Part shown: positions 6,026-64,000 of the stretch, one piece after another
How positions within the stretch are numbered: the stretch's first letter is position 1
Layout: every line of letters starts with the position of its first letter
From: Armatimonadota bacterium
GTDB taxonomy: Bacteria; Armatimonadota; UBA5829
Assembly (NCBI GenBank): GCA_026392045.1
Contig: JAPLCU010000008.1
Location: forward strand, 3,867 to 67,866
Direction of reading: 5' to 3'
Length of the DNA: 64,000 nucleotides
The notes under the pieces: generated by a model
Databases searched by the model: none
What the model was told of the DNA's origin: nothing
Seen by the model: only the letters and a program-made list of their open reading frames with translations
Program-made: the position numbers and the translations under genes

Positions 6026-6187
6026 GTTGGCCATAATTCAGCCATTCACCCCATGCGAGGGCTCATACTATCTAAATACCGTTCTTTTTGCTGAGCTTTG
6101 CTGCTATGGCACAAATCTTGCAGATATATACATGGATGGCTTTTCCTCAAGCTCACCACAAATTTCTACAAAGCAGGAGGCCATAAC

Positions 6188-7186
6188 ATGGTCACGAAGG
6201 GCAACGTGCTCGTCGTCGACGATGAGATTAATCTCTGTCGCATACTCGGCGCAAAATTAGCTAAGAGCGGTTACACCGTAGTAGCCGTACATGACGGTCT
6301 GCAAGCAGTTGAGAAGATCCGCGAGACGGAATTCGACGTCGTTCTTCTGGACCTTATCCTTCCTACGATGGATGGTCTCACTGCACTCGCAGAGATCCGA
6401 GGCATGCGCAGCGGTTTACCTGTCATCGTTATGACTGCGAGCGAAAATGCTGAGGCTATGGCTCAAGCGAAGAGCCTTGGCGTATCGGCGTATGTGAATA
6501 AGCCATTCGACCTCGATAATCTTGTGGCGCTCATTTCGAATACTTCGATTCCTCATGAATCAACGCTGCGCAGATCGCCGAACGCGACTGTGCTTTTTTG
6601 CAAAGATCAGCCGGTTACGCTGGAAATTGCGTGCGGATTGCAGGCGAAAAACTGCTTGGGTTGGATTCATGACAAAGATGACCGGACGCTTTCGGTGTTG
6701 GTTCCTCGCAGAGATGATGAGGTAGGCGAGATCCTTCCAAAAAACCCGGTTAAGGTGGGTCTGGCTGCAATGGATGCCTATTACAGCTTCACCACGCATG
6801 TTTTGAAGATTATTGAGATCACACAGAGGATACTCATGCTTGATAAGCCGGGTGTCATATACCGCGCGCAGCGCAGGCAGCACCCCAGGCTCCCAATTAA
6901 TATGCCTGTGACTTATGGCGTGTGTGATGATGATGTTCCGAGAAGCTTCAAAGAATGCGAGACGATGGATATCAGTTTGGGCGGCCTGTGCCTGGCGATG
7001 CCCGAGGAAGCGCTGCCGGGGGATATGATTCACCTTGAGCTGCATCCTGATGGCCCGCAGAGCGTGATTCACGCGAATGCGCAAGTTGTGCGATCTATTC
7101 GCAGCTGTGATTCGGACAAGAACTATATCGTGGCGTGCAAATTTACGTCGGTTGATGATTCATTCAACGTATTGTTTAAGAACTAG
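6188..7186 (+). CDS. Response regulator receiver domain fused to a C-terminal PilZ domain
   Basis: VLVVDDE, VLLDLILPTMDG and NKPF mark the REC domain. RRQHPRLP followed by DISLGGLCL gives the PilZ RxxxR / DxSxxG motifs. An AGGAGG RBS lies 7 nt upstream of the ATG at 6188. Confidence 0.8.
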   Translation: MVTKGNVLVVDDEINLCRILGAKLAKSGYTVVAVHDGLQAVEKIRETEFDVVLLDLILPTMDGLTALAEIRGMRSGLPVIVMTASENAEAMAQAKSLGVSAYVNKPFDLDNLVALISNTSIPHESTLRRSPNATVLFCKDQPVTLEIACGLQAKNCLGWIHDKDDRTLSVLVPRRDDEVGEILPKNPVKVGLAAMDAYYSFTTHVLKIIEITQRILMLDKPGVIYRAQRRQHPRLPINMPVTYGVCDDDVPRSFKECETMDISLGGLCLAMPEEALPGDMIHLELHPDGPQSVIHANAQVVRSIRSCDSDKNYIVACKFTSVDDSFNVLFKN

Positions 7187-7197
7187 CACACTTTCTA

Positions 7198-7833
7198 TTA
7201 AATGCCTTGCTTGATCCCTTTTTCGAGCAATTCGAGTGCTGCGCAATCTATGCCTGCGAATGTCTCTCCTGAGTCCAATGCCCGATAGGCAAGCCCGGTC
7301 AGTATCCCCTGAAGCGCATGGGCAGCGAGCCCGGCATCTACCTCTCTGAAATGTGTCTGAAGCATGCCTGTTCGTATTATCCTTTCGTAGACCGCCACGG
7401 TTGCCGCGAGTGACCGAGCGCGAATGCTGGAAGCGGTATCCTCGTCCATATCCGCTGTTCCCTGTTTTCTGCCGGACAAGAGCATCGGCGCCATTCCCTG
7501 ATTCTCCTGCAGAAATGCGAGGTGGGCTTTGACCACGGCTCGCAGGGTGACCCGCGCATCCTCGGGGGCCAGGCTGATAGCTTGCGCGACGCGTGATTCC
7601 ATTTCGGCGAAGAGCGCGTCCACCGCTTCCTTGACCACGTCCGCCTTGACTTTGAAATACAGGTAAAACGTCCCTGTTGCAACGCCTGCTGCGCGCACGA
7701 TGTCGTCTACCGATGTCGAATCTATTCCATTTTCACGGAACAGGCGCATCGCCACGCTAAGAAGCTCCTCGCGAAGATGCTGCTTTCTACGTTCTCTCAA
7801 CGAGCTTTGAGGTTGCTCAACGATATCGTTCAT
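7198..7833 (-). CDS. TetR/AcrR family transcriptional regulator
   Basis: N-terminal HTH region: LLSVAMRLFRENGIDSTSVDDIVRAAGVATGTFYLYFKVKADVV. Start set at MNDIV, which has a GGAGG RBS. Confidence 0.85.
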   Translation of the reverse strand: MNDIVEQPQSSLRERRKQHLREELLSVAMRLFRENGIDSTSVDDIVRAAGVATGTFYLYFKVKADVVKEAVDALFAEMESRVAQAISLAPEDARVTLRAVVKAHLAFLQENQGMAPMLLSGRKQGTADMDEDTASSIRARSLAATVAVYERIIRTGMLQTHFREVDAGLAAHALQGILTGLAYRALDSGETFAGIDCAALELLEKGIKQGI

Positions 7834-11385: not shown

Positions 11386-11487
11386 TTGCGGGAATTACAT
11401 GTCATCCTGAACTCGATTCAGGATCTGTTACGCTTAAGGCTTAGATTCCGAATCAAGTTCGGAATGACAAATACACTAAGACTGAAC
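11386..11487. repeat. ~100-nt nested-hairpin element flanked by 9-nt direct repeats GAAGGGAGG
   Basis: The outer stem AGTTCAGTCTT / AAGACTGAACT encloses two 8-bp-stem hairpins, ATCCTGAA-CTCGA-TTCAGGAT and ATTCCGAA-TCAAG-TTCGGAAT. Confidence 0.7.
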
Positions 11488-22426: not shown

Positions 22427-22517
22427 GATAGTGATTGCTTGATTGCAATATATTTTGGCTAAAAAGTGGGCGATAGAAACCGCGGGAGCCAAACCACAAA
22501 AAAGGAAGGTAGAAAAG

Positions 22518-23468
22518 ATGAATAAAACACTGCTATGCACGGCAGCCATCGCGCTGCTGAGCTTGGGCGGAATCGCTCAGGCGAACATCACCATCGAAAC
22601 TGTTGCTATAGGCAACGCAGGCAACGCGGCGGACCCCTATACTGGTTCCCTCTACGGCTCAGTGGGCTACAACTACAACATAGGCAAGTATGAAGTCACC
22701 GCGGGGCAGTATACGGCGTTTCTTAACGCCAAGGCAAATGTATCCGACGCCTACGGACTCTACAACGCCGACATGTGGAACAGTTCGTACGGCTGCAAAA
22801 TTCAGCAAACCAGCGTTACAGGCGGCTACAGCTACGCTGTGGATAGCGCCTTTGCCAACAGACCAGTAAACTGCGTAAGCTTCTGGGATGCCTGCCGTTT
22901 CACTAACTGGCTTGGTAACGGCCAGGGTAATAATTCTACCGAGACAGGCGCATACACTCTAAACAACTACAACGGGCCTCTTGGCGGCAATATCCAGCGC
23001 AACTCCGGATGGACTTATGCAGTGACAAGTGAAGATGAGTGGTATAAGGCTGCTTATTACAAAAATGGCGGTTATTCCCTGTATGCTAATGGCACAAGCG
23101 TTGCGCCGGGTGTGGAGACCGATTCTAACTACGGTGGAATAGGTGGCATATATTCAACTACCTGGGACGGAACAATCCATGGCGCTTTGGAGCAGAATGG
23201 CACTAAAGACATGATGGGCAACGTTTTTGAGTGGAACGAGGCTATTCCTTACCAGAACGCAAATTACGCTTCTCGCGGCCTGCGGGGCGGTTCGTTCCTC
23301 TACAATAGCTACTACCTCCAGTCGTCCTCCCGCGACATCTACGGCTACCCGTACGACGAGATCAACTATCTCGGGTTCCGAGTGTCTGAAGTTCCCGAGC
23401 CGTCCTCAATTATAGCTTTGCTTGGCGGTTTGGCAGGACTTATCGGGATAAGACGGCGTAAGGCATAG
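22518..23468 (+). CDS. FGE-sulfatase (SUMF1/C-type-lectin fold)-like protein with PEP-CTERM sorting signal
   Basis: Signal peptide. GKYEVTAGQYTAFLN, RPVNCVSFWDACRFTNW, GNVFEWNE, RGGSF and GFRV are present. C-terminus is VPEPSSIIALLGGLAGLIGIRRRKA. Confidence 0.8.
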   Translation: MNKTLLCTAAIALLSLGGIAQANITIETVAIGNAGNAADPYTGSLYGSVGYNYNIGKYEVTAGQYTAFLNAKANVSDAYGLYNADMWNSSYGCKIQQTSVTGGYSYAVDSAFANRPVNCVSFWDACRFTNWLGNGQGNNSTETGAYTLNNYNGPLGGNIQRNSGWTYAVTSEDEWYKAAYYKNGGYSLYANGTSVAPGVETDSNYGGIGGIYSTTWDGTIHGALEQNGTKDMMGNVFEWNEAIPYQNANYASRGLRGGSFLYNSYYLQSSSRDIYGYPYDEINYLGFRVSEVPEPSSIIALLGGLAGLIGIRRRKA

Positions 23469-35842: not shown

Positions 35843-38800
35843 CTATACAATCGGAAACCCGCCATGCCCCAATATCGACTCATCAATCAGCCCCATAAGC
35901 CGAATCGTATCGCCAAGCGCGGCTGCTGTGCGTCTGTAGTGCTCAAGGTCATCGTGGCCGAGGGTGCGGCCTTTGCGGTCTTTGAGCCACTTCTGGCACA
36001 CCTGATACCCGCCGATGTGGAACTCCCACACTTCCGGCGGCACCCCATCAAAAAACTGCGCCTTGTTTATCCACACGCGCCCTCCGGCTCCCTCTCCTGG
36101 GGGAGAGGGTTGGGGTGAGGGCGCAACCTCTGGCTCATACCGCACTTCCTCCACAATATCCGAGCCGCTTTCAGGGTACCCGGGCAGGTTTGCGCCTGTT
36201 GCGTCCATCAGATGCAGCGAAACCAGCTCATCGCCCAGCGCGCAAAGCTCGCGGAAGAGGTCTGCGCTGCTTGTCAACGGCAGACGCGGGAAGTCTATTT
36301 TCAAAAACTCGGCGTATCGCTTGCGGTAGGTTGGCGAGTGGAAGACGGCGTACATATACGCGAAAATGTCCTCCGGGCCGAAAGTGGACACGCGGTCGCC
36401 CTTGCCGTCCGAAACAAAGTCCAAACCAAGCTTTTCAGAGAATTCTTTTATAAACTCAGGCGCAAGGTTCGGGCGGCGTCCGCCAGGGGCGTCTGTGGGT
36501 TTCTCCGTGTCGAATTGGATTGATGGGTAGAGGTAGAGGGGTGCTATACTCATAATGCCCTTGTTGCTGTAAAACGCGCGGTTGTCTACCAAAACCGACG
36601 TAGCCAGGAAATGTGTGTAACACTCACTAAGTGCCACTTGCCGCATAAAGACCAGTCCAATGTTGCGACCAAAAAACATATGTCGCATGACATCTTGGCG
36701 ATTCCGCGTTACGACTGACTTATCATATGTGATGCATCTAGTATCAAATGGGCGGTACAGAATATCCTTAATCACCGAACGCGGCAACCTGTGGTTATTA
36801 GCCAGAACGGTAGCTTCTTCAGCGGAGAACGCTATTGTTCTGGCGTCCTGACCGGTGACTACTCCCACATTATTAACTGGCAAAGCATGAGTAAGATTCC
36901 AGTATTCTTCATACTCCACTCTAAGTGTGTCATCTCGCGGCACAAAGAAATAATACGGCTTCGACGGGCTTATCTCTGTCCATTGCGTATCAGCAACAGC
37001 CTTCTCCGAAAGCCACTTATACTTACCAGCTCTATCACCCCAAAGCTCCGCATGCCGCACTTTGCACTGATCTGGCGAGCCTTCATCTCGCTTTACGAAG
37101 ATTCCTATAGCAACGCCCTGCTGAATATCAAAAACATTCTTATCAGGCGAGCCGTCCGGCGCTTTTTCTTTCTTCTTGCTATTGCCGTGCAAATCGAGCA
37201 GCCAGATATCATCAAATGTATCCATCAGACTCTTGCGCATCCCCCTGAATGTGGGGTTGTCCAAATAACCGTGATTGGTGATGAATGCCAACACGCCATG
37301 ACCGGTGCGTTCTATGCGCCACTGGGCGAATCGAATGAACTTCACATAGTCATCCTGCAGCCATTTTGGGTTTTTTTCGCCCAGCGGTTTGCCATCTACA
37401 TAGTAATAATCTTGTATCAGCTTGCCGATGAATGTGGCTGTTTTCTTTTTGTTTTCATTTATGTACCAACTTCGATTCACTGAATGGCCTGAATACGGCG
37501 GATTTCCGAGCACCACCATCACGGGAGCGTCCATCTTTACTCGGCTTGCCTCGTTTGCTTCTTCAACCACCCACTGAGCAAAGAGATTTACCCCCGCGAA
37601 CTTCTCGGCTTCCTCCAGCGTGTTAGTAAGATAAACCCCAAGCCGCTCCTCACCTGCAAAATCATAACCGGATTGCGCAAGCTGCAGGCCGAGCTTCATA
37701 TGCGTAACTGCATAAGGGGCCATCAGCAGCTCAAAACCAAACACTCTCGGCAGCAAATGCTCATGCACATAGCTTGACCACATCCCCTGCTTGCCCATGA
37801 ATGACTCGTGAATCAGATCCACCACGCCATGCAGAAACGTGCCGGTGCCTGTAGCGGGGTCCAATATCTGCACCTTATGGACCTGCTTCTCGCCATCTTT
37901 GGTTTTCACGGTAACTTTGCTGGAATCCGCAAGGCCATCGCTCAAGCCAAAATCTTTTTTGAGAATATGGTCCACACTGCGCACTATATAAGAGACAACA
38001 GGCTCCGGCGTATAGTAAACGCCGCGAGTTTCGCGCAATTTCGGGTCATAAGCAGCCAAAAAGGTCTCATAAAAGTGCACAACCGGGTCTTCCAGCCGCG
38101 TTCGCTTGCCGAAACCCGTGAGAATAGCTTCCATATCTGCATGCGCAAGCAGGTTCGCCACATCATCGACCGCCCATGCGATTCGATCATCCAGGCTATA
38201 ACCCGCTATTTCCTGAAACATCTTGCGCAGAAACGGGTTTGTCTTAGGCAGATCATAGGCAGCGTGTTCGCGAGTGAAGTTTGCTCCATCTTTCGTATTG
38301 CACCGCGCGGCGAAGAGGCCATAGCAGATGGTTTGCGCATACATATCGGCAAATTGTTCTTCTTTGAGGTCATGAAGAAGGGTCTTGCGGAAGCCGTCCA
38401 TTTGGTCATGCAGCGATCCGGTTTTGTCTTCATCAGTAAGGGCCTTGGTAGTGACATCGCGAATCAGGCGCGCAAGATGAGCCATGCGCTGTGCCAGTTC
38501 CTTGGGGCTGCCAACCGTAGGCGTCTGAGTCACCAGAAACTCGCTTAAAAGCTCGCGAACTTTCTCAATGCCCTCTTTGTCTTCTTTAAGCTTGCCATGC
38601 GAATCCACCCTGCCAAGACGAGCCGTCAGCCGATGCTCCCCGCCGACATACCAGCGAAACTCCAGATAATCGGTAAGAATCAAATTGCCGAGGCTTTCAC
38701 GGTAGCGGCGCAGTTGGTCGGTTTTCTCGACCTTGTCCAGAATCTCATCCACATTCTTCGTCTCAATATAACCGATAGGCACGCGCCTGGCGGTAATGAC

Positions 38801-38989
38801 GAAATCCGGCGCGCCGCAAGCATGGCGCTTGGGCTCGTTTGTGGCAGTAATTCCGCTCTTGAGGCCTTCTACAAGAGATTGCAACGCGGCGCGGTAAGTA
38901 TGCTCGGTGGCATTACCCGCTGCCAGCGCTGATCTGATTTTACTTATATACTGGGCTATTAGTGGCATACTGTTAAGATTATACAACAA
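35843..38989 (-). CDS. Single-polypeptide Type IIG/IIL-like restriction-modification enzyme (PD-ExK nuclease + N6-adenine methyltransferase + Type-ISP/YeeA-like C-terminal specificity domain)
   Basis: N-terminal GAPDFVI and GYIETK (PD..ExK). ILDPATGTGTFL (motif I) and VLGNPPYSG (NPPY motif IV). C-terminal FHSPTYRKRYAEFLKIDFPRLP and GGYQVCQKWLKDRKGR. No helicase domain. Confidence 0.8.
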   Translation of the reverse strand: MLYNLNSMPLIAQYISKIRSALAAGNATEHTYRAALQSLVEGLKSGITATNEPKRHACGAPDFVITARRVPIGYIETKNVDEILDKVEKTDQLRRYRESLGNLILTDYLEFRWYVGGEHRLTARLGRVDSHGKLKEDKEGIEKVRELLSEFLVTQTPTVGSPKELAQRMAHLARLIRDVTTKALTDEDKTGSLHDQMDGFRKTLLHDLKEEQFADMYAQTICYGLFAARCNTKDGANFTREHAAYDLPKTNPFLRKMFQEIAGYSLDDRIAWAVDDVANLLAHADMEAILTGFGKRTRLEDPVVHFYETFLAAYDPKLRETRGVYYTPEPVVSYIVRSVDHILKKDFGLSDGLADSSKVTVKTKDGEKQVHKVQILDPATGTGTFLHGVVDLIHESFMGKQGMWSSYVHEHLLPRVFGFELLMAPYAVTHMKLGLQLAQSGYDFAGEERLGVYLTNTLEEAEKFAGVNLFAQWVVEEANEASRVKMDAPVMVVLGNPPYSGHSVNRSWYINENKKKTATFIGKLIQDYYYVDGKPLGEKNPKWLQDDYVKFIRFAQWRIERTGHGVLAFITNHGYLDNPTFRGMRKSLMDTFDDIWLLDLHGNSKKKEKAPDGSPDKNVFDIQQGVAIGIFVKRDEGSPDQCKVRHAELWGDRAGKYKWLSEKAVADTQWTEISPSKPYYFFVPRDDTLRVEYEEYWNLTHALPVNNVGVVTGQDARTIAFSAEEATVLANNHRLPRSVIKDILYRPFDTRCITYDKSVVTRNRQDVMRHMFFGRNIGLVFMRQVALSECYTHFLATSVLVDNRAFYSNKGIMSIAPLYLYPSIQFDTEKPTDAPGGRRPNLAPEFIKEFSEKLGLDFVSDGKGDRVSTFGPEDIFAYMYAVFHSPTYRKRYAEFLKIDFPRLPLTSSADLFRELCALGDELVSLHLMDATGANLPGYPESGSDIVEEVRYEPEVAPSPQPSPPGEGAGGRVWINKAQFFDGVPPEVWEFHIGGYQVCQKWLKDRKGRTLGHDDLEHYRRTAAALGDTIRLMGLIDESILGHGGFPIV
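36070..36125. repeat. Palindromic REP-like element embedded in-frame in the Type IIG CDS
   Basis: Contains CCCTCTCC-TGGG-GGAGAGGG followed by TTGGGGTGAGGGC. It encodes PEVAPSPQPSPPGEGAGG between the conserved VRYE and RVWIN blocks. Confidence 0.75.
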
Positions 38990-43472: not shown

Positions 43473-44396
43473 TTGAGTAAGCGAATAAGAATTGTAGTTT
43501 GTTCCATTGTTGCATTGTCGGTGGTGGCTTTGTGCCTGGTGGGTTGCGCATCGTCCAAGCCGCCCTCTAAATCAATGCTAAAGATACAGATGATTTCCAT
43601 CCCAGCAGGTTCTTTTCTGATGGGCAACTCAGGTGTTGGCAATGACAAAAAGTATTCAAACCCGACTGAACTACCTAAACACTCGGTAACTCTTTCAGCC
43701 TACTCCATAGGCAAATATGAGGTCACGCGTGGTCAATACAAGCAGTTTATAAAAGCAGGCGGCTACTCCAATAAATCCTACTGGTCAAACGAGGGCTGGA
43801 AATGGAAAATATCGAAGAAACGCACCGAGCCGGAAAGCTGGGCTGCTAAGCAGACTTGGGGAAAACAAACATTTACCCAGACAGATAACCACCCCGTAGT
43901 TAGCGTTTGCTATTATGAAGCGGAAGCTTTCTGTAATTGGGCTGGCGGTCATCTGCCTACTGAGGCTCAGTGGGAACGTGCAGCCAGATGGAATTCTAAA
44001 ACGAAACATGCCAATGTTTACCCTTGGGGTGATGTTTGGGATGCTGAAAAGTGCAATAACTTTGCTGATCATAACTCCGCTGGCGGAGGATATAAGCGTT
44101 ATCAGACTGCTCCAGTGGGCAGTTACCCGAGTGGTGCAAGTCCGTCTGGATGCCAGGATATGGCTGGCAATGTGTGGGAGTGGTGCAAGGACTGGTATGG
44201 AGACAAATATTATTCTAAAAGCCCAAAGAGCAACCCCCAGGGCCCTGCAAGTGGCAGCTTTCGTTTCGTGCGGGGCGGTGGTTGGTGCGGCAGCTACGGC
44301 GGCCTCGACGTCGACAGCGTCCGGTGCGCCTGCCGCAGCATCTACGGCGTCCCGAGCTACGGTAACGGCGGCGTCGGGTTCCGTTTAGTCCGCTAG
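43473..44396 (+). CDS. FGE-sulfatase (SUMF1/C-type-lectin fold) lipoprotein with a DGR-VR-like C-terminus
   Basis: TTG start and lipobox LVGCASS. GKYEVTRGQYKQFI, NHPVVSVCYYEAEAFCNWAGGHLPTEAQWERAARW, GNVWEWCKDWY, RGGGW and GFRLVR are present. In the 3' tail, 27 of 30 codons end in C. Confidence 0.85.
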   Translation: MSKRIRIVVCSIVALSVVALCLVGCASSKPPSKSMLKIQMISIPAGSFLMGNSGVGNDKKYSNPTELPKHSVTLSAYSIGKYEVTRGQYKQFIKAGGYSNKSYWSNEGWKWKISKKRTEPESWAAKQTWGKQTFTQTDNHPVVSVCYYEAEAFCNWAGGHLPTEAQWERAARWNSKTKHANVYPWGDVWDAEKCNNFADHNSAGGGYKRYQTAPVGSYPSGASPSGCQDMAGNVWEWCKDWYGDKYYSKSPKSNPQGPASGSFRFVRGGGWCGSYGGLDVDSVRCACRSIYGVPSYGNGGVGFRLVR

Positions 44397-44416
44397 TCTC
44401 GCCCTTTGCACTGAAT

Positions 44417-44450
44417 CGCGAATGGAGCGAATATGCGCTGATTTCGCGAA
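44417..44450 (+). repeat. Leader stem-loop module L, copy 2
   Basis: CGCGAATGGAGCGAATATGCGCTGATTTCGCGAAA, 27 nt upstream of the ATG at 44477. Confidence 0.75.
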
Positions 44451-44476
44451 AGGGGGAAATCCTCACAGGTGACCAT

Positions 44477-45904: not shown

Positions 45905-45987
45905 GGAGGGCGAGGCTCCCGCCGAGCCAAAGCCATCAGGCCATCCAACCATCAGACCATCGGCCTCCCTTCCCTGCTCTCCACTTT
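45905..45987 (+). repeat. Composite intergenic element (GGAGGGCGAGGCTCCCGCCGAGCC + CCATC heptamers + CCTCCCTTCCC + CTCTCCACT)
   Basis: Same module order as 57670-57776. The right half is inverted at 1198-1262. The GC-rich head is inverted at 63584-63608. Confidence 0.85.
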
Positions 45988-46284: not shown

Positions 46285-47052
46285 ATGAGAAGAACCTGTA
46301 TTTGTTGTATGGCTTTACTATTTGCTGCTGGATTATTTGCTTTGCCCTCGGGGTCGGTTGTATGGGCTGCTGATTCCCCCAACACTTCGCTTGCCGAAGC
46401 TGCCAACAACACCGGCAAATCGGTTGATTTGGTGAATTTGGAATTCAAAGATATTGATGTTCGGTCAGCCATTCAGGCGCTATTCAGAGGCTCCGGCAGG
46501 AGTCACGCTATAGATCAGGATGTTTCTGGGTTTGTCTCATCAGTATCGTTTACGGATGTGCCGTTCGATGCTGCACTGCGCAGCCTGACTAAATCCGCAG
46601 GTCTAACATATAGGCAGAACGGCGATGTCTACCAGATTAGCAAAAGAGTAGACGTTCCAACTCCAACTGTTGTAGAGATTCCGACGCCGATCCCGGAAGT
46701 CGAGCAGCCGAAGACCACTGAGATTATTATAGAGAAGATTCCTCTGAACCATAGCAGCCCCAGCGAGATACTTGCATACCTGGATGGCTCTGCGGACTCC
46801 AACCGGTTATATGGCGGTGGTAACGGCAATCCTGGCTATGGCGGTTACGGCAGTCCTGGAGGCTATGGCGGCTACGGCAATCCTGGCTATGGGGGCTATG
46901 GCAGTCCTGGCTATGGCGGTTACGGCAGCCCCGGCGGCTATGGCAACTATGGCGGCAGTGGAATCAACCCCAGCGGCATCATGGGCGGCTACGGTGTGCC
47001 CTCATCGATCCCATCTGCTGGTTACGGCGGCGTTAACGTTAGGCGCTGGTAA
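46285..47052 (+). CDS. Secreted protein with secretin-N0/STN-like domain and Gly-Tyr-rich low-complexity tail
   Basis: Signal peptide. LEFKDIDVRSAIQALFRGSGRSHAID and FTDVPFDAALRSLTKSAGLTYRQNGDVYQI resemble secretin N-terminal (STN/N0) domains. The tail is (PGYGGYGS)n. Confidence 0.55.
   Translation: MRRTCICCMALLFAAGLFALPSGSVVWAADSPNTSLAEAANNTGKSVDLVNLEFKDIDVRSAIQALFRGSGRSHAIDQDVSGFVSSVSFTDVPFDAALRSLTKSAGLTYRQNGDVYQISKRVDVPTPTVVEIPTPIPEVEQPKTTEIIIEKIPLNHSSPSEILAYLDGSADSNRLYGGGNGNPGYGGYGSPGGYGGYGNPGYGGYGSPGYGGYGSPGGYGNYGGSGINPSGIMGGYGVPSSIPSAGYGGVNVRRW
46809..46960 (+). repeat. Coding tandem repeat (~24-27 nt units, CCTGGCTATGGCGGTTACGGCAGT)
   Basis: Encodes GNPGYGGYGSPGGYGGYGNPGYGGYGSPGYGGYGSPGGYGNYGG. 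Confidence 0.85.
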
Positions 47053-47741: not shown

Positions 47742-47769
47742 GTTCGTAATCTCCTTCGGAGATAGTTAA

Positions 47770-47832
47770 AAGTCATAAGTCAATAAGTTATAAGTTATAA
47801 GTTATAAGTTATAAGTCATAAGTCATAAGTTA
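47770..47832. repeat. Heptamer tandem array (ATAAGTY) x9 inside the oxidoreductase operon spacer
   Basis: Reads aagtcataagtcaataagttataagttataagttataagttataagtcataagtcataagtt. The same unit forms inverted arrays at 63147-63233. Confidence 0.9.
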
Positions 47833-47921
47833 AAAGGTTGGCCTGTGCTGAGCAGCATGATAACTGCGTTTGGGCAGATTTGCAATCTCGCCTGTCCCTT
47901 CTATTCCCTGTTCCCTGTTTC

Positions 47922-52330: not shown

Positions 52331-52383
52331 ATTTACCCCATGAGAAATAAGTCTGCAATAAACAGTTGTTCCACCAATATCGA

Positions 52384-52421
52384 ATCAAAACTCAGAACTC
52401 ATAACTCAAAACTCAAAACTT
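52384..52421. repeat. Heptamer tandem array (AACTCAR)
   Basis: Reads atcaaaactcagaactcataactcaaaactcaaaactt. A second array lies at 61852-61885. Confidence 0.85.
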
Positions 52422-53087
52422 TTTTCGGTGCAGCCAGATTGCTCTTGCAATGTCTATGAACTGCTCTCCACGGTGAACAAAACCCTTGAGCGTTCTGCCG
52501 GAGAGCCGGTGGGTTAGGGGTAGGGGAACTTCCACTATTTTATAGCCCTTGCGCAGCGCATCGATTGTTAGCGCTGTCTCCACCCCAAATCCCTTTTCAA
52601 ACCCGCCTATATCATCTATAAGCTTCCGCCTGATCGCTCTCTGACCCGAAATCGGCGCGGTAACCACCGTGCCGCCGTATTTCTTGATACCCCATCTGGC
52701 TAATTTCATCACAAACCCAAAGCCGGCTTTGTGCCCGTCAGGGGCTTTCATAACGGCAATGGACATATCCGCCTGCCCAGCGAATATCGGCTCTAATAGC
52801 CTATAGGTCTCGGCAGCAGTCTCGCCAAGGTCTGCATCTATAATCAACAATATCTGGGCGTCTGTTTCCTCGATGCCGCGATTCATAGCTGCGCCTTTGC
52901 CGGAGTTTTTATTCATCTGCACCACGCGCGCGCCGGCGTTGTATGCGATGATCGGAGTCTCGTCATCCGAGCCATCATCGATCACCAACACTTCGTCGAT
53001 CCCAGGCATCCCAAGCACCGCCTTCACGGTTTCGCCTATGATGTTCTCTTCATTGAACGCCGGTATTAGCGCCGTTGCTCTATCCAA
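52413..53087 (-). CDS. Glycosyltransferase family 2
   Basis: ALIPAFNEE, VLVIDDGSDDET and IIDADL (the DxD region). Confidence 0.85.
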   Translation of the reverse strand: MDRATALIPAFNEENIIGETVKAVLGMPGIDEVLVIDDGSDDETPIIAYNAGARVVQMNKNSGKGAAMNRGIEETDAQILLIIDADLGETAAETYRLLEPIFAGQADMSIAVMKAPDGHKAGFGFVMKLARWGIKKYGGTVVTAPISGQRAIRRKLIDDIGGFEKGFGVETALTIDALRKGYKIVEVPLPLTHRLSGRTLKGFVHRGEQFIDIARAIWLHRKKF

Positions 53088-53975
53088 CTACTTTTTCTCC
53101 AATGTCTGCGGAATCAATCTTTCTGCAGTCTCTTTTGTGCCGAACTGGGCTTTTTCTCCGTTCAGCGCACAAATTAAGGCAACTTGCCCCATAGCCGTAT
53201 CCGCGTTATCAACGGTCGCGATTCCCATCTTGCTCCATTTGGGCACGCATGATCCGGCCGCTTGCGACCCCTCGCATCCTACCACAATTGCGCCCTTTTT
53301 CTCAAGCAGGGCAATGAGTTGGGAGTCCAGATTGCCCGAATTGTCTTTCTCTTTTGTTTCTAACCCTCCAACAAGCACCACCATATGGTTATACTTGCTA
53401 TAATCTCCCGTAAACTTGGCAACTCCCGCTTTTTCGATACAAGCAAGGATTTCCGAACCTTGCGATGTGTAAGCTGCTTCAGTGATTAGCGCTAAGAGCT
53501 TGTTCGCTGCCTCTTTCAAATCGCTCGGCGGCGCTATCCCGCAGGAAGTAAGCACTTGGGAGACCTTTTCGTAGTTCTCAAATGCGAACTTGCTGTCGAT
53601 ATCGGTGATGCTGTTCACCCTCGCTCCGGCCATTTCCAGGGCGCGCTTCACATATCCAGAAATATCGTCATAATCGCCGGTCTGAATAATGGCCACATTT
53701 CTCCATTCCAGCCTGCCCTTAGCAACAATCGGCAGCGCCGCGCGGCAGAAGTCCTCACTGTTTTTCGCCTGAGCTTCTTTTGCCCGACGCTCATCAGTGG
53801 CAGTCTCAATGTCCCTTTTAAGACTGGGAATGAGAGATTCGTAACGGGCAATGGTCCTCTTAGCGCCCGCAGTGGAAGGCGCGCGGTTCGCAAAAGACGA
53901 CCCGACAACAATCCCCACCGCCAGCGCGAAAAACACTGCGGCCAAGCTGTATATGTGGTAGCGTATGTCGATCAT
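53088..53975 (-). CDS. MctB-like copper transporter family protein (DUF3186)
   Basis: The N-terminus MIDIRYHIYSLAAVFFALAVGIVVG is the family hallmark. Zero-nt gap to the GT2 gene. Confidence 0.7.
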   Translation of the reverse strand: MIDIRYHIYSLAAVFFALAVGIVVGSSFANRAPSTAGAKRTIARYESLIPSLKRDIETATDERRAKEAQAKNSEDFCRAALPIVAKGRLEWRNVAIIQTGDYDDISGYVKRALEMAGARVNSITDIDSKFAFENYEKVSQVLTSCGIAPPSDLKEAANKLLALITEAAYTSQGSEILACIEKAGVAKFTGDYSKYNHMVVLVGGLETKEKDNSGNLDSQLIALLEKKGAIVVGCEGSQAAGSCVPKWSKMGIATVDNADTAMGQVALICALNGEKAQFGTKETAERLIPQTLEKK

Positions 53976-54238
53976 GTTTGCTCCTGAAAACTAGGGAATA
54001 GGGAACAGGGAACAGGGAATAGTCCGGATTGTACCCAATACATCCTCTTGTCTATTATCTTATTATAGCGGGCATAGCAATTGTTCGCAGGAACAGAGGC
54101 AACCGCCCGCGTAAGCTGGGAAGTCATACCGTAAATCTCTGATTTCGGGAAGGATTTGCTTAATTGGTATACACAAACAGCCAAGTCCATAGCCTTCTGC
54201 CAAACAATCAAATCCCGATGCGAATTAACCAAAGCCAT
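53972..54238 (-). pseudogene. Truncated duplicate of the four-helix-bundle gene (first 52 codons only, then a repeat-derived read-through)
   Basis: 54083-54238 is about 90% identical at DNA level to 54570-54725. Homology ends after ...VASVPAN. The remainder runs into the GTTCCCT heptamer array. Confidence 0.75.
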
Positions 54239-54326: not shown

Positions 54327-54365
54327 ACTATTCCCTGTTCCCTGTTCCCTATTCTCTGTCCCCTA
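54327..54365. repeat. Heptamer tandem array (GTTCCCT-type)
   Basis: Reads ctattccctgttccctgttccctattctctgtcccc. Related arrays lie at 54745-54782, 47894-47921 and, inverted, at 53993-54027. Confidence 0.85.
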
Positions 54366-54725
54366 CCTTTCTATCTTATTGCGCATAGAAGTTAGCATCT
54401 TACTAATTTCAGTTATAAGCCCAAAGATTGCGCATGTATCTTCTGACTTAATATAATCTAGCCTGATTGCCAGCATCAAAAATGTCTCTGTTTCCATCAA
54501 GGAACCTTTTGCAATGGCAAGAAAATGTGAGTAGTCCTTGCCCGTACCTCGTGCATTTCCTTCAGCAATGTTTGCAGGAACAGAGGCAACCGCCCGCGTA
54601 AGCTGGGAAGTCATACCGTAAATCTCTGATTTTGGAAAGGATTTGCTTAATTGGTATACACAAACAGCCAAATCCATTGCTTTCTGCCAAACGATAAGAT
54701 CTCTATGCGAGTTAATTTGTGTCAT
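54363..54725 (-). CDS. Four-helix-bundle protein (23S rRNA intervening-sequence protein family; same family as DGR Avd)
   Basis: DLIVWQKAMDLAVCVYQLSKSFPKSEIYGMTSQLTRAVASVPANIAEGNAR and AKGSLMETETFL. Start set at MTQINSH. Confidence 0.9.
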   Translation of the reverse strand: MTQINSHRDLIVWQKAMDLAVCVYQLSKSFPKSEIYGMTSQLTRAVASVPANIAEGNARGTGKDYSHFLAIAKGSLMETETFLMLAIRLDYIKSEDTCAIFGLITEISKMLTSMRNKIER

Positions 54726-54775
54726 AACGCGTCTCCTACCTTCCCTTCTATTCCCTGTTCCCTGTAACCTATTCC

Positions 54776-55933
54776 CTACCTTCTCCATTCCCAAGGCTTC
54801 ATCCTCGTATAAACTTGCCAGAACTGGGCTTTCATGTCTGAGATTATTGCCTGCATTCGTTCTTGCATGCCGGGTGAGGTTGCCATGACGGTGGCTATGA
54901 CAACGAGCGCCGCTATTGCGAGCACGCCAACGTATTTCAGATTCGGCTGAGGCCTGTAGAGCTTGCTTACTCCCTTAGCGTCGACGAGTCGATTGCCTAC
55001 TTTCAGGCGAGTAAGGAACGTGCTGGACATGCCTTTGCGGCCCTTATCCAGAAAATCTATTAAGTGCGAGTGAGTTCCTACGGCCACAATCAGCTCTGCG
55101 CCCTTTTCGTAGGCCAACAGCAGCGCAAGGTCTTCGCTGGTGCCCGGAACCGCGCAGACCTGCGGCGCCAGGCCAAGCTCTTCTAAGCGAGGCAACCCCG
55201 GGGCTTTGCCGTTTGTGTAAGCGTGAACTATCAACTCGGCGCCGCATTTGAGCGTGGCATCGCTCACGCTGTCCATGTCTCCGATGATTATATTCGGCTG
55301 TAATCCCATCTCCATCAGCGCGTCAGCCCCGCCGTCCACGCCTATGAGCACGGGCTTCATATCCCGAATATAGCTGCGGATTGTCGAGAGGTCTTCTTTG
55401 TAAGACTCGCCGCGAACCACCACCAGCGCATGCCGCTCGTTGATGATGGTGTTCACATCCGGAAGAGCGGTCGGGTCTAGAATCAGCGACTTTTCTTTGA
55501 TTACATAATTCAGCGTGTTCTCGGCAAACTGCTGGAGCACATCTCCAAGGTTGGTTTTGGCCTCTTCGAGCAACTGCGTGACTCTGGACTTTGTGAGCGC
55601 TTCGCCTTTAGAAAGCGTGACCTCGCCGCGCCGGATTTCACCGCCGACTCTGTTAATGGTCTCGCCTTCCTTGATGCCTTTGAAAAGCTCCTCGCCTGCG
55701 TTGTCTATGAGCACGATTCCCGCATCCAACAGCACGCGCGGGCCGAGGTTAGGGTAGCGGCCCGAGCAGGACTTGGCAACATTCACCACCGCCGCCACGC
55801 GCGCTTCAACCAGCATCCGCGCGGCGGTGGAATCGATGTCTGCGTGGTCAATGAGGGCGATATCCCCCGGTTTGAGCCGCTTCGCAAGGTCCTTTGTTCG
55901 TTTATCTAGCCTAACTGTTCCGCTGATCTGCAA
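54776..55933 (-). CDS. steA: SteA-like cytokinetic ring-associated protein (thiamin-pyrophosphokinase-like domain)
   Basis: GTVRLDKRTKDLAKRLKPGDIALIDHADID and IIGDMDS, with a C-terminal TM segment. Overlaps the recN 3' end by 23 nt. Confidence 0.8.
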   Translation of the reverse strand: MQISGTVRLDKRTKDLAKRLKPGDIALIDHADIDSTAARMLVEARVAAVVNVAKSCSGRYPNLGPRVLLDAGIVLIDNAGEELFKGIKEGETINRVGGEIRRGEVTLSKGEALTKSRVTQLLEEAKTNLGDVLQQFAENTLNYVIKEKSLILDPTALPDVNTIINERHALVVVRGESYKEDLSTIRSYIRDMKPVLIGVDGGADALMEMGLQPNIIIGDMDSVSDATLKCGAELIVHAYTNGKAPGLPRLEELGLAPQVCAVPGTSEDLALLLAYEKGAELIVAVGTHSHLIDFLDKGRKGMSSTFLTRLKVGNRLVDAKGVSKLYRPQPNLKYVGVLAIAALVVIATVMATSPGMQERMQAIISDMKAQFWQVYTRMKPWEWRR

Positions 55934-57669: not shown

Positions 57670-57776
57670 GGGAGGGCGAGGCTCCCGCCGAGCCAAAACT
57701 ATCAGCCCATCGAACCATCCAACCATCAGCCTCCCTTCCCTTCCGGGCTCTCCACTCTCCACTTTCCACTCTCCAC
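57670..57776 (+). repeat. Composite intergenic element, long copy
   Basis: GGGAGGGCGAGGCTCCCGCCGAGCCAAA + CCATC-type heptamers + CCTCCCTTCCC + (CTCTCCACT) heptamers. See 45905-45987. Confidence 0.85.
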
Positions 57777-58108: not shown

Positions 58109-58232
58109 AATAGCGCTCCTAATTGAATGATTAAGATAGGCCTCTATATTATACAGCAAAAAGGCGCCAAAGTTGACTACTTCAGCGCCTTCCCTCTTAA
58201 TTCATAATTCATAATTTAGAATTCGCGAAGCG

Positions 58233-59126: not shown

Positions 59127-59161
59127 TAGTTGACAGTTGACAGTTGACGGTTGACAGTTCG
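59127..59161. repeat. Heptamer tandem array (GTTGACA)
   Basis: Reads agttgacagttgacagttgacggttgacagttcgg. Related arrays lie at 63024-63057 and 24596-24622. Confidence 0.85.
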
Positions 59162-59200
59162 GTGTTTAGGGAAACCCCTTTCCCGAAACCACCGCTTGGT

Positions 59201-61716: not shown

Positions 61717-61775
61717 AAATGCTAGATTTGAAAGCTTATCATGCTGCTCATCCTTCGAGAGCCTCAGGATGGCGA
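61717..61775 (+). repeat. Conserved 59-nt element E, second copy
   Basis: Identical by reading to 4792-4850. Confidence 0.85.
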
Positions 61776-61829
61776 AGTGGTAACTTGGCGAAGTGGTAAC
61801 TTGGCGAGTTGGTAACTTGGCGAGTTGGA
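61772..61829. repeat. 16-mer tandem array (GCGARTTGGTAACTTG) x3.6
   Basis: Starts inside the 3' end of element E. It generates the artefactual ORF 61624-61872. Confidence 0.9.
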
Positions 61830-61938
61830 CTGAATGACTCATGCGAAGACAAATCAAAAACTCAGAACTCAAAACTCAAAACTATTACATCGAATGCTAT
61901 GGGACGGTAATGAACAGAAATAGCAGAAAAACCAAAAA

Positions 61939-63021
61939 ATGAAATCATTACGATTATGTTTGATTGGGTGCGCCTTAGCGCTGCAATGCGCAGCTTGCTG
62001 GGCAGTGTGTGGAGTGCGAATATCCGACTTGCATCACATCCCAACTCCGCCGAATCCTATTAAGGTATGGGGTAAGGTAAAGAGTGTATCGCCGCTTAAA
62101 ATAAGCGATGGGCGCGCGGAGATTCAAGTAAATGGTTTCACCGCATCACTTAATGATTTTGTGGTTGTTACGGGCGATTGGAATGGAACTGTGTTAACTG
62201 TCGCCGTTACCAGCACGATTACCGGCGAGATGATCTCCATTCCGGCTGGCGCATTCAGCATGGGAACGCCTACTAGCTATACAGGGTTTCATTACCCCAA
62301 TGAACACCCTCAGCACTCGGTAACCCTTGGCGCTTATAGCATAGGCAAGTATGAGGTAACCCGCGCCGAGTATCGCAAATTCATAGAGGCCGATGGATAT
62401 TCTACACAATCCTATTGGTCTGTTGCGGGATGGAATTGGCGCAACAACTGTGATGGGCTGGGTCTTGTGCGTAACGAGCCTGATTATTGGACTGCGATAC
62501 AGACTTGGGGCAGCCCTCCGGGTGCATTCACACAAACGGACAATCACCCCGTAGTGGGCGTTAGCTATTATGAAGCTGAAGCTTATTGCAATTGGGCTGG
62601 AGGTTATTTGCCTACCGAGGCTCAGTGGGAACGGGCTGCCAGATGGACCGGCAGCGTTGCCTATATATATCCGTGGGGTGATACCTGGGATCAGGAGAAA
62701 TGCAACAACGGGTTTGACAGTCTGTATTCTCTTTTTCAGACCGCTCCAGTGGGCAGCTACTCGGCCTATCCGAGCGCTTCCGGCTGTCAGGACATGGCTG
62801 GCAATGTATGGGAATGGTGCAAGGATCGGTATAAAGACACTTATTATTCTTCGCTACCTGATGGCGAATGGATCGACCCACAGGGGCCTGCAAGTGGCAG
62901 CTTGCGTGTCTGTCGGGGCGGTAGTTGGAACTACGGCGAAAACTTCGTCCGATGCGCTTGCCGTAATTATGGCAATCCTGAAAACTACAACTACGAACTC
63001 GGGTTTCGCTTGGCTCGCTAG
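61939..63021 (+). CDS. FGE-sulfatase (SUMF1/C-type-lectin fold) protein with N-terminal OB-like module
   Basis: Signal/lipobox-like N-terminus. PIKVWGKVKSVSPLKISDG...VVVTGDW. GKYEVTRAEYRKFI, NHPVVGVSYYEAEAYCNWAGGYLPTEAQWERAARW, GNVWEWCKDRY, RGGSW and GFRLAR. Confidence 0.85.
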   Translation: MKSLRLCLIGCALALQCAACWAVCGVRISDLHHIPTPPNPIKVWGKVKSVSPLKISDGRAEIQVNGFTASLNDFVVVTGDWNGTVLTVAVTSTITGEMISIPAGAFSMGTPTSYTGFHYPNEHPQHSVTLGAYSIGKYEVTRAEYRKFIEADGYSTQSYWSVAGWNWRNNCDGLGLVRNEPDYWTAIQTWGSPPGAFTQTDNHPVVGVSYYEAEAYCNWAGGYLPTEAQWERAARWTGSVAYIYPWGDTWDQEKCNNGFDSLYSLFQTAPVGSYSAYPSASGCQDMAGNVWEWCKDRYKDTYYSSLPDGEWIDPQGPASGSLRVCRGGSWNYGENFVRCACRNYGNPENYNYELGFRLAR

Positions 63022-63146
63022 TCTAACTGTTGGCAGTTGGCAGTTGACGGTTAGCAGATGTCGCTTTCCCCAACCGTAAACCGACAATCCATAAACCTAT
63101 CTCGCTTCAGGAGGGCGCAATCTATGCACAAGAAACTCCATGGGGT

Positions 63147-63233
63147 ATATAAGTTGTAAGTCATAAGTTATAAGTTCAGAACCAGATTCCCCGTCGTTAG
63201 TTACTTACGACTTATAACCATAACTTATAACTT
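63147..63233. repeat. Inverted pair of ATAAGTY heptamer arrays (long imperfect hairpin)
   Basis: tataagttgtaagtcataagttataagtt ... acttacgacttataaccataacttataactt. Confidence 0.8.
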
Positions 63234-63441
63234 GACTACGCTTGAGAACCTCACCCTTCGGGACGAAAAACAGTCCCGAAGTATATTGTTGTGACTTTAT
63301 CCGCCACCGCTAGCAGGCAGGCGAAGTCCTTCCGATATAGCACTAGATACAAAAATGGACCAAGATCACATTCTTGTTGTAACTGGAAACCCTTTTCCCG
63401 ATACTTCCGAGCACACACATTTCGGGAAAGGGGTTTCCCGA

Positions 63442-63504
63442 AATAACTAATACGGCAACCAGTACTACATTAGCTACGAACTCGGGTTTCGCTTGGCTCG
63501 CTAG
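63442..63504 (+). pseudogene. Orphan 3'-terminal fragment of an FGE-sulfatase paralogue
   Basis: The last 36 nt (CTACGAACTCGGGTTTCGCTTGGCTCGCTAGTCT) are identical to the end of 61939-63021. The preceding 30 nt are codon-aligned but diverged and contain an in-frame TAA. The sequence just downstream, CTCGCCCTTT, matches that downstream of 43473-44396. Confidence 0.6.
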
Positions 63505-63730
63505 TCTCGCCCTTTTCTCTCCTACCCTTTATAACCACGGGAGGGCGAAGGTCCCCCTGAGCCATTTCCCTTCGCAGCTACAAGGCTCGGCGGGAGCCTC
63601 GCCCTCCCATCATTCACCGCAAGTGAGTTCTTGATTTCATGCGCGTAGACGCGCATTTTTTAGCCGTCTGTGTTATAGTATTAATGAATCATTGTACCGA
63701 CCGATTGATAAATGGTATAAAGTTATTGTT

Positions 63731-64000
63731 ATGGCAATTAATGATTTTGGTAACACTCCCCATGTGGAGCAGAATATTGAAGAGACCAAGCAGCCGGTTC
63801 CGGTTGGAATAGCACGAATCAGGGACGAATGGCGCGAGGCAGGGCTGGTAGAGGATACCAGCGCTCCTCCCAAGGAAGAAGAGGAACCTGTTGTCTTCAC
63901 TGAGGTGGACGGCGGCGCGGGTATCGGCGACTACACATTGGATGGCGAGAAAGTGCGAAGCCAGTTGGCGCTCTCAGATGAAGCGTTCGGTCGCCTCATA
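63731..64000 (+). CDS. Hypothetical acidic protein, 3'-truncated by the window end
   Basis: Open frame of 90 codons from the ATG at 63731 to the window edge (MAINDFGNTPHVEQNIEETKQ...). No clear RBS. The antisense ORF 63673-63900 is judged to be its shadow. Confidence 0.35.
   Translation, partial: MAINDFGNTPHVEQNIEETKQPVPVGIARIRDEWREAGLVEDTSAPPKEEEEPVVFTEVDGGAGIGDYTLDGEKVRSQLALSDEAFGRLI

Follow-up and report, generated by a model that had tools for sequence, protein, structure and literature searches.

The 64,000-nucleotide stretch of contig JAPLCU010000008.1 analysed here (hereafter the window; assembly GCA_026392045.1, Armatimonadota) carries at 43473..44396 (+) a gene for a 307-residue FGE-sulfatase/C-type-lectin-fold protein with a lipoprotein-type N-terminus, as read from its open reading frame (ORF) and translation. 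An initial annotation had proposed that this gene is or was a remote target of a diversity-generating retroelement (DGR), and it is the 3′ end of the gene, as a candidate DGR variable region (VR), that concerns us. The start codon is TTG, with GAGG 7 nt upstream. The segment 43473..43547 (+) encodes a signal peptide (MSKRIRIVVCSIVALSVVALCLVGC) with the lipobox L-V-G-C (Cys25), from which we take the protein to be a lipoprotein, an assignment made by eye from established knowledge rather than by a predictor.

Pfam places a full-length FGE-sulfatase domain (PF03781, E=3e-61) over residues 39-307, and the protein ends in GFRLVR*. Its homologues in sequence comparison include FGE, EgtB, TvpA (2y3c) and PorK/GldK lipoproteins; the FGE matches extend over the whole domain at E values of about 1e-30 to 1e-25 (for example 2q17 and 1y1e), and TvpA is matched at E=6e-13. 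The protein itself is a singleton, encoded on a contig of 69,223 bp; homologues with source names come mostly from Armatimonadota metagenome-assembled genomes (MAGs). The FGE catalytic motif LCHDSYC aligns to the first of three variable loops described below, and both of its cysteines are replaced: in the alignment with Streptomyces coelicolor FGE, the catalytic pair (C-x4-C before the R-x-A-x-R scaffold) becomes a Gly and a Val of that loop. We therefore rejected an active FGE. Because both catalytic cysteines are replaced, the sequence points to a catalytically dead FGE-sulfatase fold that would serve as a binding scaffold and not as an enzyme. By analogy with TvpA, the protein may be displayed at the cell surface and bind a ligand.

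Codon usage in this gene switches near its 3′ end. Between 44286 and 44375, C is the final base of 27 of 30 codons, compared with 62 of 271 elsewhere in the gene, and GC content rises to 72%, against 48.5% for the rest; these are the highest-GC 90 nt in the whole 64 kb (top 0.04% of positions). With 33 window genes as the codon-usage reference, the encoded residues would lead one to expect only 13.3 codons ending in C (Poisson-binomial P=5e-8). The third positions comprise 27 C, 2 G and 1 T, and all four valines are encoded by GTC. When 75 family members are put through the same amino-acid-conditioned test of third-position C, the window tail stands furthest out, at z=5.4 compared with a family median of 1.5; verified VRs in the family reach z = 1.7-2.65. 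The codon switch described in the initial annotation is thus borne out, and the GC-rich shadow ORFs listed there, 43915-44388 (+) and 44215-44466 (−), are both present. Two details change: the 90 nt hold 12 A and not 13, and the anomaly begins at about 44257, at a 5′ scaffold, rather than at 44286. Elsewhere in the window, a gene for an STN-domain protein (46285-47052, +) ranks third among window genes for its local number of codons ending in C; the cause there is compositional, and its C-terminus holds a Gly/Tyr/Pro-rich tandem repeat (46816-46953; GYGGYGSPGGYGGYGNP…).

The tail also diverges from its closest homologues in a position-specific manner. We compared the window DNA with L137, L138 and L139, three loci from JGI metagenomes that encode proteins 77, 75 and 72% identical to the window protein. 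Counted over codon positions 1, 2 and 3, the gene body differs at 32, 23 and 98 sites from L137, at 31, 29 and 104 from L138, and at 34, 26 and 102 from L139, a normal and mostly synonymous divergence. Over 25 aligned codons of the tail, by contrast, the corresponding counts are 10, 11 and 2, 13, 11 and 0, and 12, 18 and 7 (tail versus body, Fisher p=4e-7, 5e-10 and 1e-6). The scaffold codons CGG TGC GCY ... CGC, CCG and GGG TTC CGY are fixed across lineages that are otherwise about 40% diverged at synonymous sites. Body third positions differ from those of the nearest homologue at about 37%, whereas the window tail shows no third-position decay in 30 codons. Because codon positions 1 and 2 are scrambled while third-position C and the scaffold are fixed, the tail appears to have been copied from a conserved AAC-rich template; diversifying selection acting on the protein is disfavoured, because synonymous positions would not then stay fixed. 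Variability confined to the first two codon positions, which had been suggested as a check on the DGR proposal, is thus seen between homologues from different metagenomes.

Templates of this kind are found in related genomes. From four VRs we inferred a template repeat (TR) of the form ...TGG (AAC)n CGG TGC GCY TAC CGC (AAC)4-5 CCG (AAC)7 GGG TTC CG, and a scan of GTDB genomes with the scaffold-only pattern returned 20 loci, genuine TRs among them. The lineage TR reads ...GCGGGGCGGTRGTTGG (AAC)7-8 CGG TGC GCC TAC CGC (AAC)4 CCG AAC AAC TAT (AAC)4 GGG TTC CGY YTA GCC CGC AAG and can be written in general form as GGGCCATAACGGGGCTATCGTGT..GCGGGGCGGTRGTTGG (AAC)n CGGTGCGCCTACCGC (AAC)n CCG (AAC)n GGGTTCCGTYTAGCCCGCAAGTCTGCCGATGCC, with GCGGGGCGGTRGTTGG(AAC)n...GGGTTCCGTYTAGCCCGCAAG as the short form. 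Five cassettes comprising bAvd, a reverse transcriptase (RT) and a TR lie in Armatimonadota-type MAGs: L146 (CAYSLA010000018), L154 and L150 (both MFD01112.bin.2.36), L160 (JANYKG010000154) and L161 (GCA_009885305.1 VFKZ01001037). Their order, by Pfam, is target (FGE-sulfatase)-bAvd-RT (RVT_1)-TR, and the bAvd genes exceed the 40-bit cut-off with scores of 54-57 bits. In three of the cassettes bAvd follows directly after the VR, and the other two loci end before any target. L161 is a compact cassette, with VR end, bAvd, RT and TR on 2.6 kb, and was reached through an RT-clade protein; the L160 TR, from an Armatimonadetes MAG, was found via the TR's own 5′ flank, which is absent from VRs. A scan of viral contigs with this flank gave no match. 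L150 and L154 share their MAG with L048, a homologue whose product is 59% identical to that of the window gene.

Within these cassettes, mismatches between the TR and the cassette's own VR fall at TR adenines in 91-100% of cases. In L146, the TR of which reads CGG TGC GCC TAC CGC (AAC)4 CCG AAC AAC TAT (AAC)4 GGG TTT CG, 24 of 25 mismatches do so. L141, another locus from the pattern scan, also holds a verified TR-VR pair, with 17 of 17 mismatches at TR adenines. Indels of 3n are present between verified VR-TR pairs of the lineage. We conclude that there is a small, strongly conserved, cellular (non-phage) DGR lineage of the type target-bAvd-RT-TR in Armatimonadota-type bacteria. Further afield in GTDB genomes, classic TR-VR pairs occur at the homologous tail in 3 of 80 more distant family loci (L056, L068 and L080), with 88-100% of mismatches at TR adenines. 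L068 has the gene order target-RT-Avd-TR, and in L056 a distance of 9.3 kb separates one VR from its TR. In these three loci the VR begins at about LRGGSW and extends 15-25 nt beyond GFR, which is the span of the window anomaly.

A multiple alignment of the window tail with the five TRs and four other VRs sets the boundaries of the candidate VR at 44257..44399 (+), about 143 nt with an uncertainty of 10 nt at either end. It corresponds to the last 46 codons of the target gene plus 3 nt and is homologous throughout to the TRs of the bAvd-RT-TR lineage, the homology beginning at GCT(A/T)TCGT and stopping at CGC|TAG. Probes made from the TR flanks match the window only at 44269-44285 (17/17) and 44376-44399 (22/24). 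The 5′ scaffold GCTTTCGTTTCGTGCGGGGCGGTGGTTGG (44257..44285, +; …S F R F V R G G G W) aligns to TR GCTATCGTGTSYTGCGGGGCGGTRGTTGG. It is followed by variable loop 1 (44286..44321, +), 12 NNC codons (CGSYGGLDVDSV) where the TRs have 7-8 AAC-type codons. The central scaffold CGG TGC GCC TGC CGC (44322..44336, +; R C A C R) agrees at 14 of 15 nt with the TRs, which read CGG TGC GCC TAC CGC, and the lone mismatch is at a TR adenine. Variable loop 2 (44337..44351, +) has five NNC codons (SIYGV) against four AAC codons in the TRs, and the CCG scaffold codon that follows (44352..44354, +; Pro) is invariant in 4/4 clade VRs and in all TRs. Variable loop 3 (44355..44375, +) reads AGC TAC GGT AAC GGC GGC GTC where the TR has AAC AAC TAT AAC AAC AAC AAC; compared with the L146 and L161 TRs it has 5+5 differences at codon positions 1-2 and none at position 3, so that even the odd third-position T is preserved (GGT; TR TAT). 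The 3′ scaffold GGG TTC CGT TTA GTC CGC TAG TCT (44376..44399, +; G F R L V R stop) matches the L154 TR at 22 of 24 nt. Every VR has the stop TAG where the TRs read AAG, and this position is therefore about the 3′ limit of VR/TR homology. Across the stop, the motif TAGTCTCGCCCTTT (44394..44407, +) is common to the verified L154 VR, L137, L138 and an orphan fragment in the window (63502-63515); the form TAG(T/G)CTCGCCCT is common to the window VR and the verified L154 VR.

Over its scaffold the window VR is identical to the five TRs at 60-63 of 71 nt, although the body of the window gene has only 59% amino acid identity to L048, from the MAG of the L150 and L154 cassettes. From W to GFR the third position matches the TR family in every one of the 30 codons, even in the three that end in a base other than C (CGG, CCG and GGT). 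If the loops derive from AAC codons, 75% of the A sites have been substituted in the window VR, in the proportions G:T:C = 25:10:1; verified pairs show 44-81% substitution with the same ranking, G>T>C (69:56:22; L146 15:7:2). Because substitutions at the presumed AAC sites are mostly to G, the GC shift of the tail is largely attributable to A-to-G mutagenesis.

Several of the cassettes show peculiarities of their own. The adjacent VRs of L146 (333-463) and L161 (1-70) each carry an indel that is not a multiple of 3, breaking the target frame after RGGSW in the former and shifting it inside loop 2 in the latter; these look like DGR-generated, target-inactivating frameshifts. In L150, about 2 kb (5711-7713) separates bAvd and RT and includes an ORF of 100 aa (7378-7680; MIRVYVYILASRRNGTLYIGLTNDIERRIAEHRSG…) that is GIY-YIG nuclease-like by eye. 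The L154 RT ORF (193 aa) matches only the C-terminal part of RVT_1. At 11400-11470 the window has a double-hairpin element of ~70 nt (TGTCATCCTGAACTCGATTCAGGATCTG…CCGAATCAAGTTCGGAATGACA), three copies of which lie on the L161 contig (178-247, 626-653 and 2075-2146; 76-93% identity), which hints that the window organism is related to the DGR-bearing MAG GCA_009885305.1.

A paralogue within the window (61939..63021, +; 64% amino acid identity) provides an internal control. With loops of 7/4/7 codons, its tail (62905-63024) aligns colinearly with the TRs and contains an 18-nt exact match to them (GCGGGGCGGTAGTTGGAAC), but its third positions disagree with theirs at 13-15 of 32 sites, compared with 0 of 20 in the indel-free parts of the target tail. 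The differences of the paralogue tail from the window tail are spread over codon positions 1, 2 and 3 (8, 9 and 11), as are those from the tails of the homologues. The paralogue tail looks like a decayed former VR or an untemplated ancestral state. Because its third positions have decayed and those of the target have not, the target tail was templated recently relative to synonymous divergence; for the same reason any loss of the cassette must be recent. Of the two paralogues previously said to carry the same scaffold, 61939-63021 thus shares the scaffold without the DGR signature, and 22443-23468 proves to be only 29% identical. The non-coding stretch 63022-63732 contains an orphan FGE-sulfatase tail fragment (63451-63520; …YGNQYYISYELGFRLAR*) with an in-frame TAA upstream. 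A run of 34 nt in it (63474-63507) is identical to the paralogue end (62991-63024), and its post-stop flank is of the target-gene type (TAGTCTCGCCCTTTTCTCTCC). This arrangement suggests a tail-end duplication or recombination, or a ~450-nt insertion that duplicated the gene end. We rejected the fragment as a TR or a TR remnant: its mismatches are not A-specific, and its flank is VR-type (TAG TCTCGCCC) and not TR-type (AAG TCTGCCGATGCC).

We conclude, with a probability of roughly 85%, that 44257-44399 is a VR written by a DGR. The proposal that the gene is or was a remote DGR target is thus supported by the confinement of tail variation to codon positions 1 and 2 and by a scaffold equal to that of genuine TRs. 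From the observed codon signature, position-specific divergence and homology to real TRs we infer the retrohoming event itself. In this process, an AAC-rich TR RNA would have been copied by a DGR RT with its bAvd partner, random misincorporation opposite template adenines would have turned AAC codons into NNC, and the cDNA would have replaced the VR (mutagenic retrohoming). Third-position C and the scaffold codons would be copied faithfully, with frequent A-to-G changes raising the GC content. The template would come from the cellular target-bAvd-RT-TR lineage of the Armatimonadota-type MAGs, and its cassette, unless it was lost recently, would be separated from the VR by more than 19.6 kb on the downstream side or more than 44 kb on the upstream side, within the ~5 kb of the contig outside the window, or would be on another contig. 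We lean slightly towards a cognate cassette still being present in the genome. As in Treponema TvpA, the three diversified loops (12, 5 and 7 codons) would together make up a face of variable sequence that binds a ligand.

The window itself holds no cassette. An ungapped scan of both strands of the 64 kb with the VR found no TR, the best non-self match being about 50% identical with no template-A bias. Nor does the window encode an RT: the four ORFs of at least 150 aa with a YxDD motif are a DNA methylase, a metallo-beta-lactamase-fold protein, a DUF1598 protein and NAD kinase. A tblastn search of the window with the lineage DGR RTs and bAvds likewise gave no match, so that the statement in the initial annotation that the window lacks TR and RT holds on three separate tests. 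A scan of the whole window against Rfam also gave no match. The four-helix-bundle gene put forward as a DGR Avd does not hold up. This ORF (54363-54794, −) matches 23S_rRNA_IVP at 132.8 bits (7e-39) and bAvd at only 19.6 bits, below the 40-bit cut-off; its best tblastn E value against the lineage bAvds is 2.4, and its neighbours have no RT match.

A number of results weigh against this reading. Neither the VR nor its source genome occurs in the GTDB-representative, JGI/ENA metagenome or IMG/VR collections, so that the defining pair of VR and cognate TR is missing. A recoded-VR pattern with third-position C fixed found no TR in GTDB genomes and only (AAC)n microsatellites in the metagenomes and IMG/VR, the pattern being over-permissive. 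Each known TR differs from the window VR by 4-7 non-A scaffold mismatches, and for this reason none of them is the cognate template. L161 (P0123) was rejected as the cognate cassette on four non-A mismatches and shorter loops, though it is of the same family; the L150 TR was also rejected as a case of trans-targeting of the L154 VR, since the two bAvds are 99% identical and the loci may be duplicates or assembly variants. The loops add to these difficulties. They comprise 12/5/7 codons in the window against 7-8/4/7 in all TRs seen, and eight TRs read from RT read-through C-termini all have 7/4/7 loops; a difference of 4-5 codons would be large even given the known 3n indels. Finally, a conserved GC hairpin and candidate target-site element, GGGGGTTGTAGGGGGC-(GCAA/GCTA/TTT)-GCCCCC, lies 40-60 nt after the VR stop in L137 (~2750-2775), L146 (~510-540) and L161 (~115-140) and is absent after the window VR, as it is after the L138 VR. 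Target-site elements 3′ of the VR, such as the initiation of mutagenic homing (IMH) sequence and a hairpin or cruciform, are not a universal defining feature of DGR targets. A window hairpin at 44413-44450 was rejected as a DGR cruciform or terminator, as it is not significant (z=−0.97).

Two further observations on the same side concern current activity. In a second assembly of the same strain (Logan, SRR20698647), two short contigs, one of which spans the whole VR, show 1 mismatch in 2,906 bp, and the VR is 100% identical. The single-nucleotide polymorphism (SNP) is at 44426, in intergenic DNA 30 nt downstream of the VR. This argues weakly against ongoing diversification, the comparison being of two consensus sequences, perhaps from one community, and hence a weak test. 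The tail of L049/P0020, from a lineage 61-65% identical, scores z=2.6 and yet is nucleotide-identical in eight samples; because this tail is stable, a tail rich in third-position C is not by itself proof of activity. Between species, the L049/P0020 tail is conserved better than the body, and the 3′ third of the gene is conserved well above the 5′ part. A search of the 3-Mb contig that carries L049 (61% identical) for a TR differing only at A matched only the VR, with a strict pattern that misses indel-bearing TRs. One NCBI MAG and seven Logan runs, which come from different studies, carry the P0020 gene (L129-L136; Armatimonadota) at 100% nucleotide identity, and this strain is thus very widespread.

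The main alternative is that the VR is recently orphaned: a DGR of the lineage wrote the tail, the cassette has since been lost or was never stably held, and the window carries a frozen allele. We regard this as possible but doubtful. It agrees with the empty 64 kb, with the identity of the VR in two assemblies that differ at a nearby SNP and with the missing downstream hairpin of the lineage, and in three lineage cassettes the VR is directly upstream of bAvd, which is not so here. The decayed paralogue tail and the orphan fragment show, moreover, that tails in this window do get abandoned. However, the absence of third-position decay in 30 codons, against about 37% in the body, means that any loss was very recent; cellular DGR targets more than 100 kb away are documented (PMC5758913), and the analysed DNA leaves aside ~5 kb of the contig as well as all other parts of the genome.

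It is also conceivable, if improbable, that a distant TR with the standard 7-8/4/7 loops acts in trans, the DGR making length diversity by slippage on AAC runs in addition to substitutions, with relaxed site needs. If so, DGR-addressable sites would be broader than supposed, and many NNC tails that lack a TR would be live targets.

More unlikely still is an import of the 3′ end from a diversified homologue in another strain or species, by homologous recombination or horizontal transfer, with no retrohoming in this genome. The abrupt change of composition at the conserved block GCGGGGCGGTGGTTGG could mark a crossover point, and paralogue tails show signs of shuffling, the orphan fragment combining 34 nt of the paralogue with the target-type post-stop motif. 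However, no donor with the window tail is found among 5.8 billion proteins, the best match being 77% identical with a different tail, and the post-stop flank is common to native homologues. An import would in any case still require a DGR in the donor, which changes the place of the event and leaves the mechanism the same.

That the tail owes nothing to a DGR and reflects translational selection, gene conversion biased towards GC or a preference for loops rich in Gly, Ser, Tyr and Asp is hardly credible: family tails are mildly enriched in third-position C also where the nearest 10 kb hold no TR (median z=1.5), and the stable L049/P0020 tail reaches z=2.6, but the window bias survives amino-acid conditioning (P=5e-8), is specific to C and not to G+C (27 C, 2 G, 1 T), keeps its third positions across lineages with synonymous sites about 40% diverged and sits in a scaffold that matches non-coding TRs adjoining RTs.

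The DGR-written VR favoured here works like a known DGR system and probably belongs to it. The closest relatives are the Armatimonadota-type cassettes, which share with the window a near base-for-base scaffold, the TAG/AAG stop position, the G>T>C spectrum and an FGE-sulfatase target. They differ in having an adjacent VR in three loci, 7-8/4/7 loops and a downstream hairpin, whereas the window has no cassette, 12/5/7 loops and no hairpin. The DGR of Treponema denticola, with TvpA (2y3c) and seven further non-adjacent targets, resembles the window in the extreme C-terminal CLec1 VR, the ...GFR end and the lipoprotein nature of the target; no formylglycine-generating chemistry is expected there, as in the window, and targets may lie far from the RT (PMC5758913). 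It belongs to another phylum and another RT/TR lineage, and its TR is known, whereas the remote-target status of the window gene is our reading of its tail. The DGR of Bordetella phage BPP-1 (Mtd, Avd, TR, Brt) is of the same class, with adenine-specific mutagenic retrohoming that recodes AAC to NNC, a C-terminal VR of C-type-lectin fold and a four-helix-bundle Avd (PMC5758913). It differs from the window in being phage-borne, with an adjacent target and an Mtd-type rather than FGE-type CLec domain. BPP-1 also requires an IMH and a hairpin, a counterpart of which is not demonstrated in the window. The FGEs of S. coelicolor (2q17) and human (SUMF1, 1y1e) share the whole domain; the catalytic Cys pair is present in them and replaced in the window protein.

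Published surveys provide a setting for such a target. FGE-sulfatase proteins with a C-terminal CLec1 VR form the largest class of DGR targets (71/372). A total of 29 targets, belonging to 10 DGRs, lie over 100 kb away from the RT, and all but one of them show no sign of a phage link; 3n indels are described beside AAC repeats (PMC5758913). Large surveys of DGRs in metagenomes detect a target only where it adjoins the RT and so miss remote ones, as Roux et al. 2021 state explicitly (PMC8144416). The window leaves the known DGR mechanism unchanged. It illustrates that a VR can be recognised without its TR from three sequence signals, namely an excess run of NNC codons, divergence at codon positions 1-2 and scaffold identity to foreign TRs. 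By combining a fresh VR with a decayed VR-like tail in a paralogue and an orphan fragment, the window is useful for following how DGR targets are gained and abandoned, and the gene suggests that this uncultured lineage has a surface lipoprotein of variable sequence.

The neighbourhood of the target gene is chromosomal, with genes for LepA, a RecN/SMC-type ATPase, NAD kinase, restriction-modification enzymes and large Laminin_G_3 secreted proteins. Two enzymes are of defence type: a Type ISP restriction-modification enzyme (35843-38989, −; Type_ISP_C 5e-77, with N6_Mtase) and an N6_N4 DNA methylase fused to an Mrr/NA-iREase1-like nuclease domain (3105-4709, −). The window has two 23S_rRNA_IVP four-helix-bundle ORFs, one truncated (53972-54238, −) and one full-length (54363-54794, −). 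A 147-nt repeat that is 92% identical (54082-54228 and 54569-54715) lies within this pair, with no RT nearby, and CTATTCCCTGTTCCCTGT-type repeats follow each of the two ORFs and recur at 47889 and 57736.

Intergenic DNA in the window carries short tandem repeats with units of 7 nt (or 16 nt), namely TATAAGT/TCATAAG, AACTCAA, GTTGACA and TGGCGAAGTGGTAACT, some of which form long AT-rich hairpins. They are located at 47760-47831, 52381-52423, 58189-58217, 59129-59171, 61770-61828, 61844-61900, 63029-63057 and 63148-63238 and are a genome-wide family. A GC-rich palindromic element of ~70 nt (GGAGGGCGAGGCTCCCGCCGAGCC…) occurs at 45905-45975 and 57671-57741 (90% identical), with a related copy at 63540-63610; lying downstream of several genes, it is like a repetitive extragenic palindrome (REP) or a miniature inverted-repeat transposable element (MITE).

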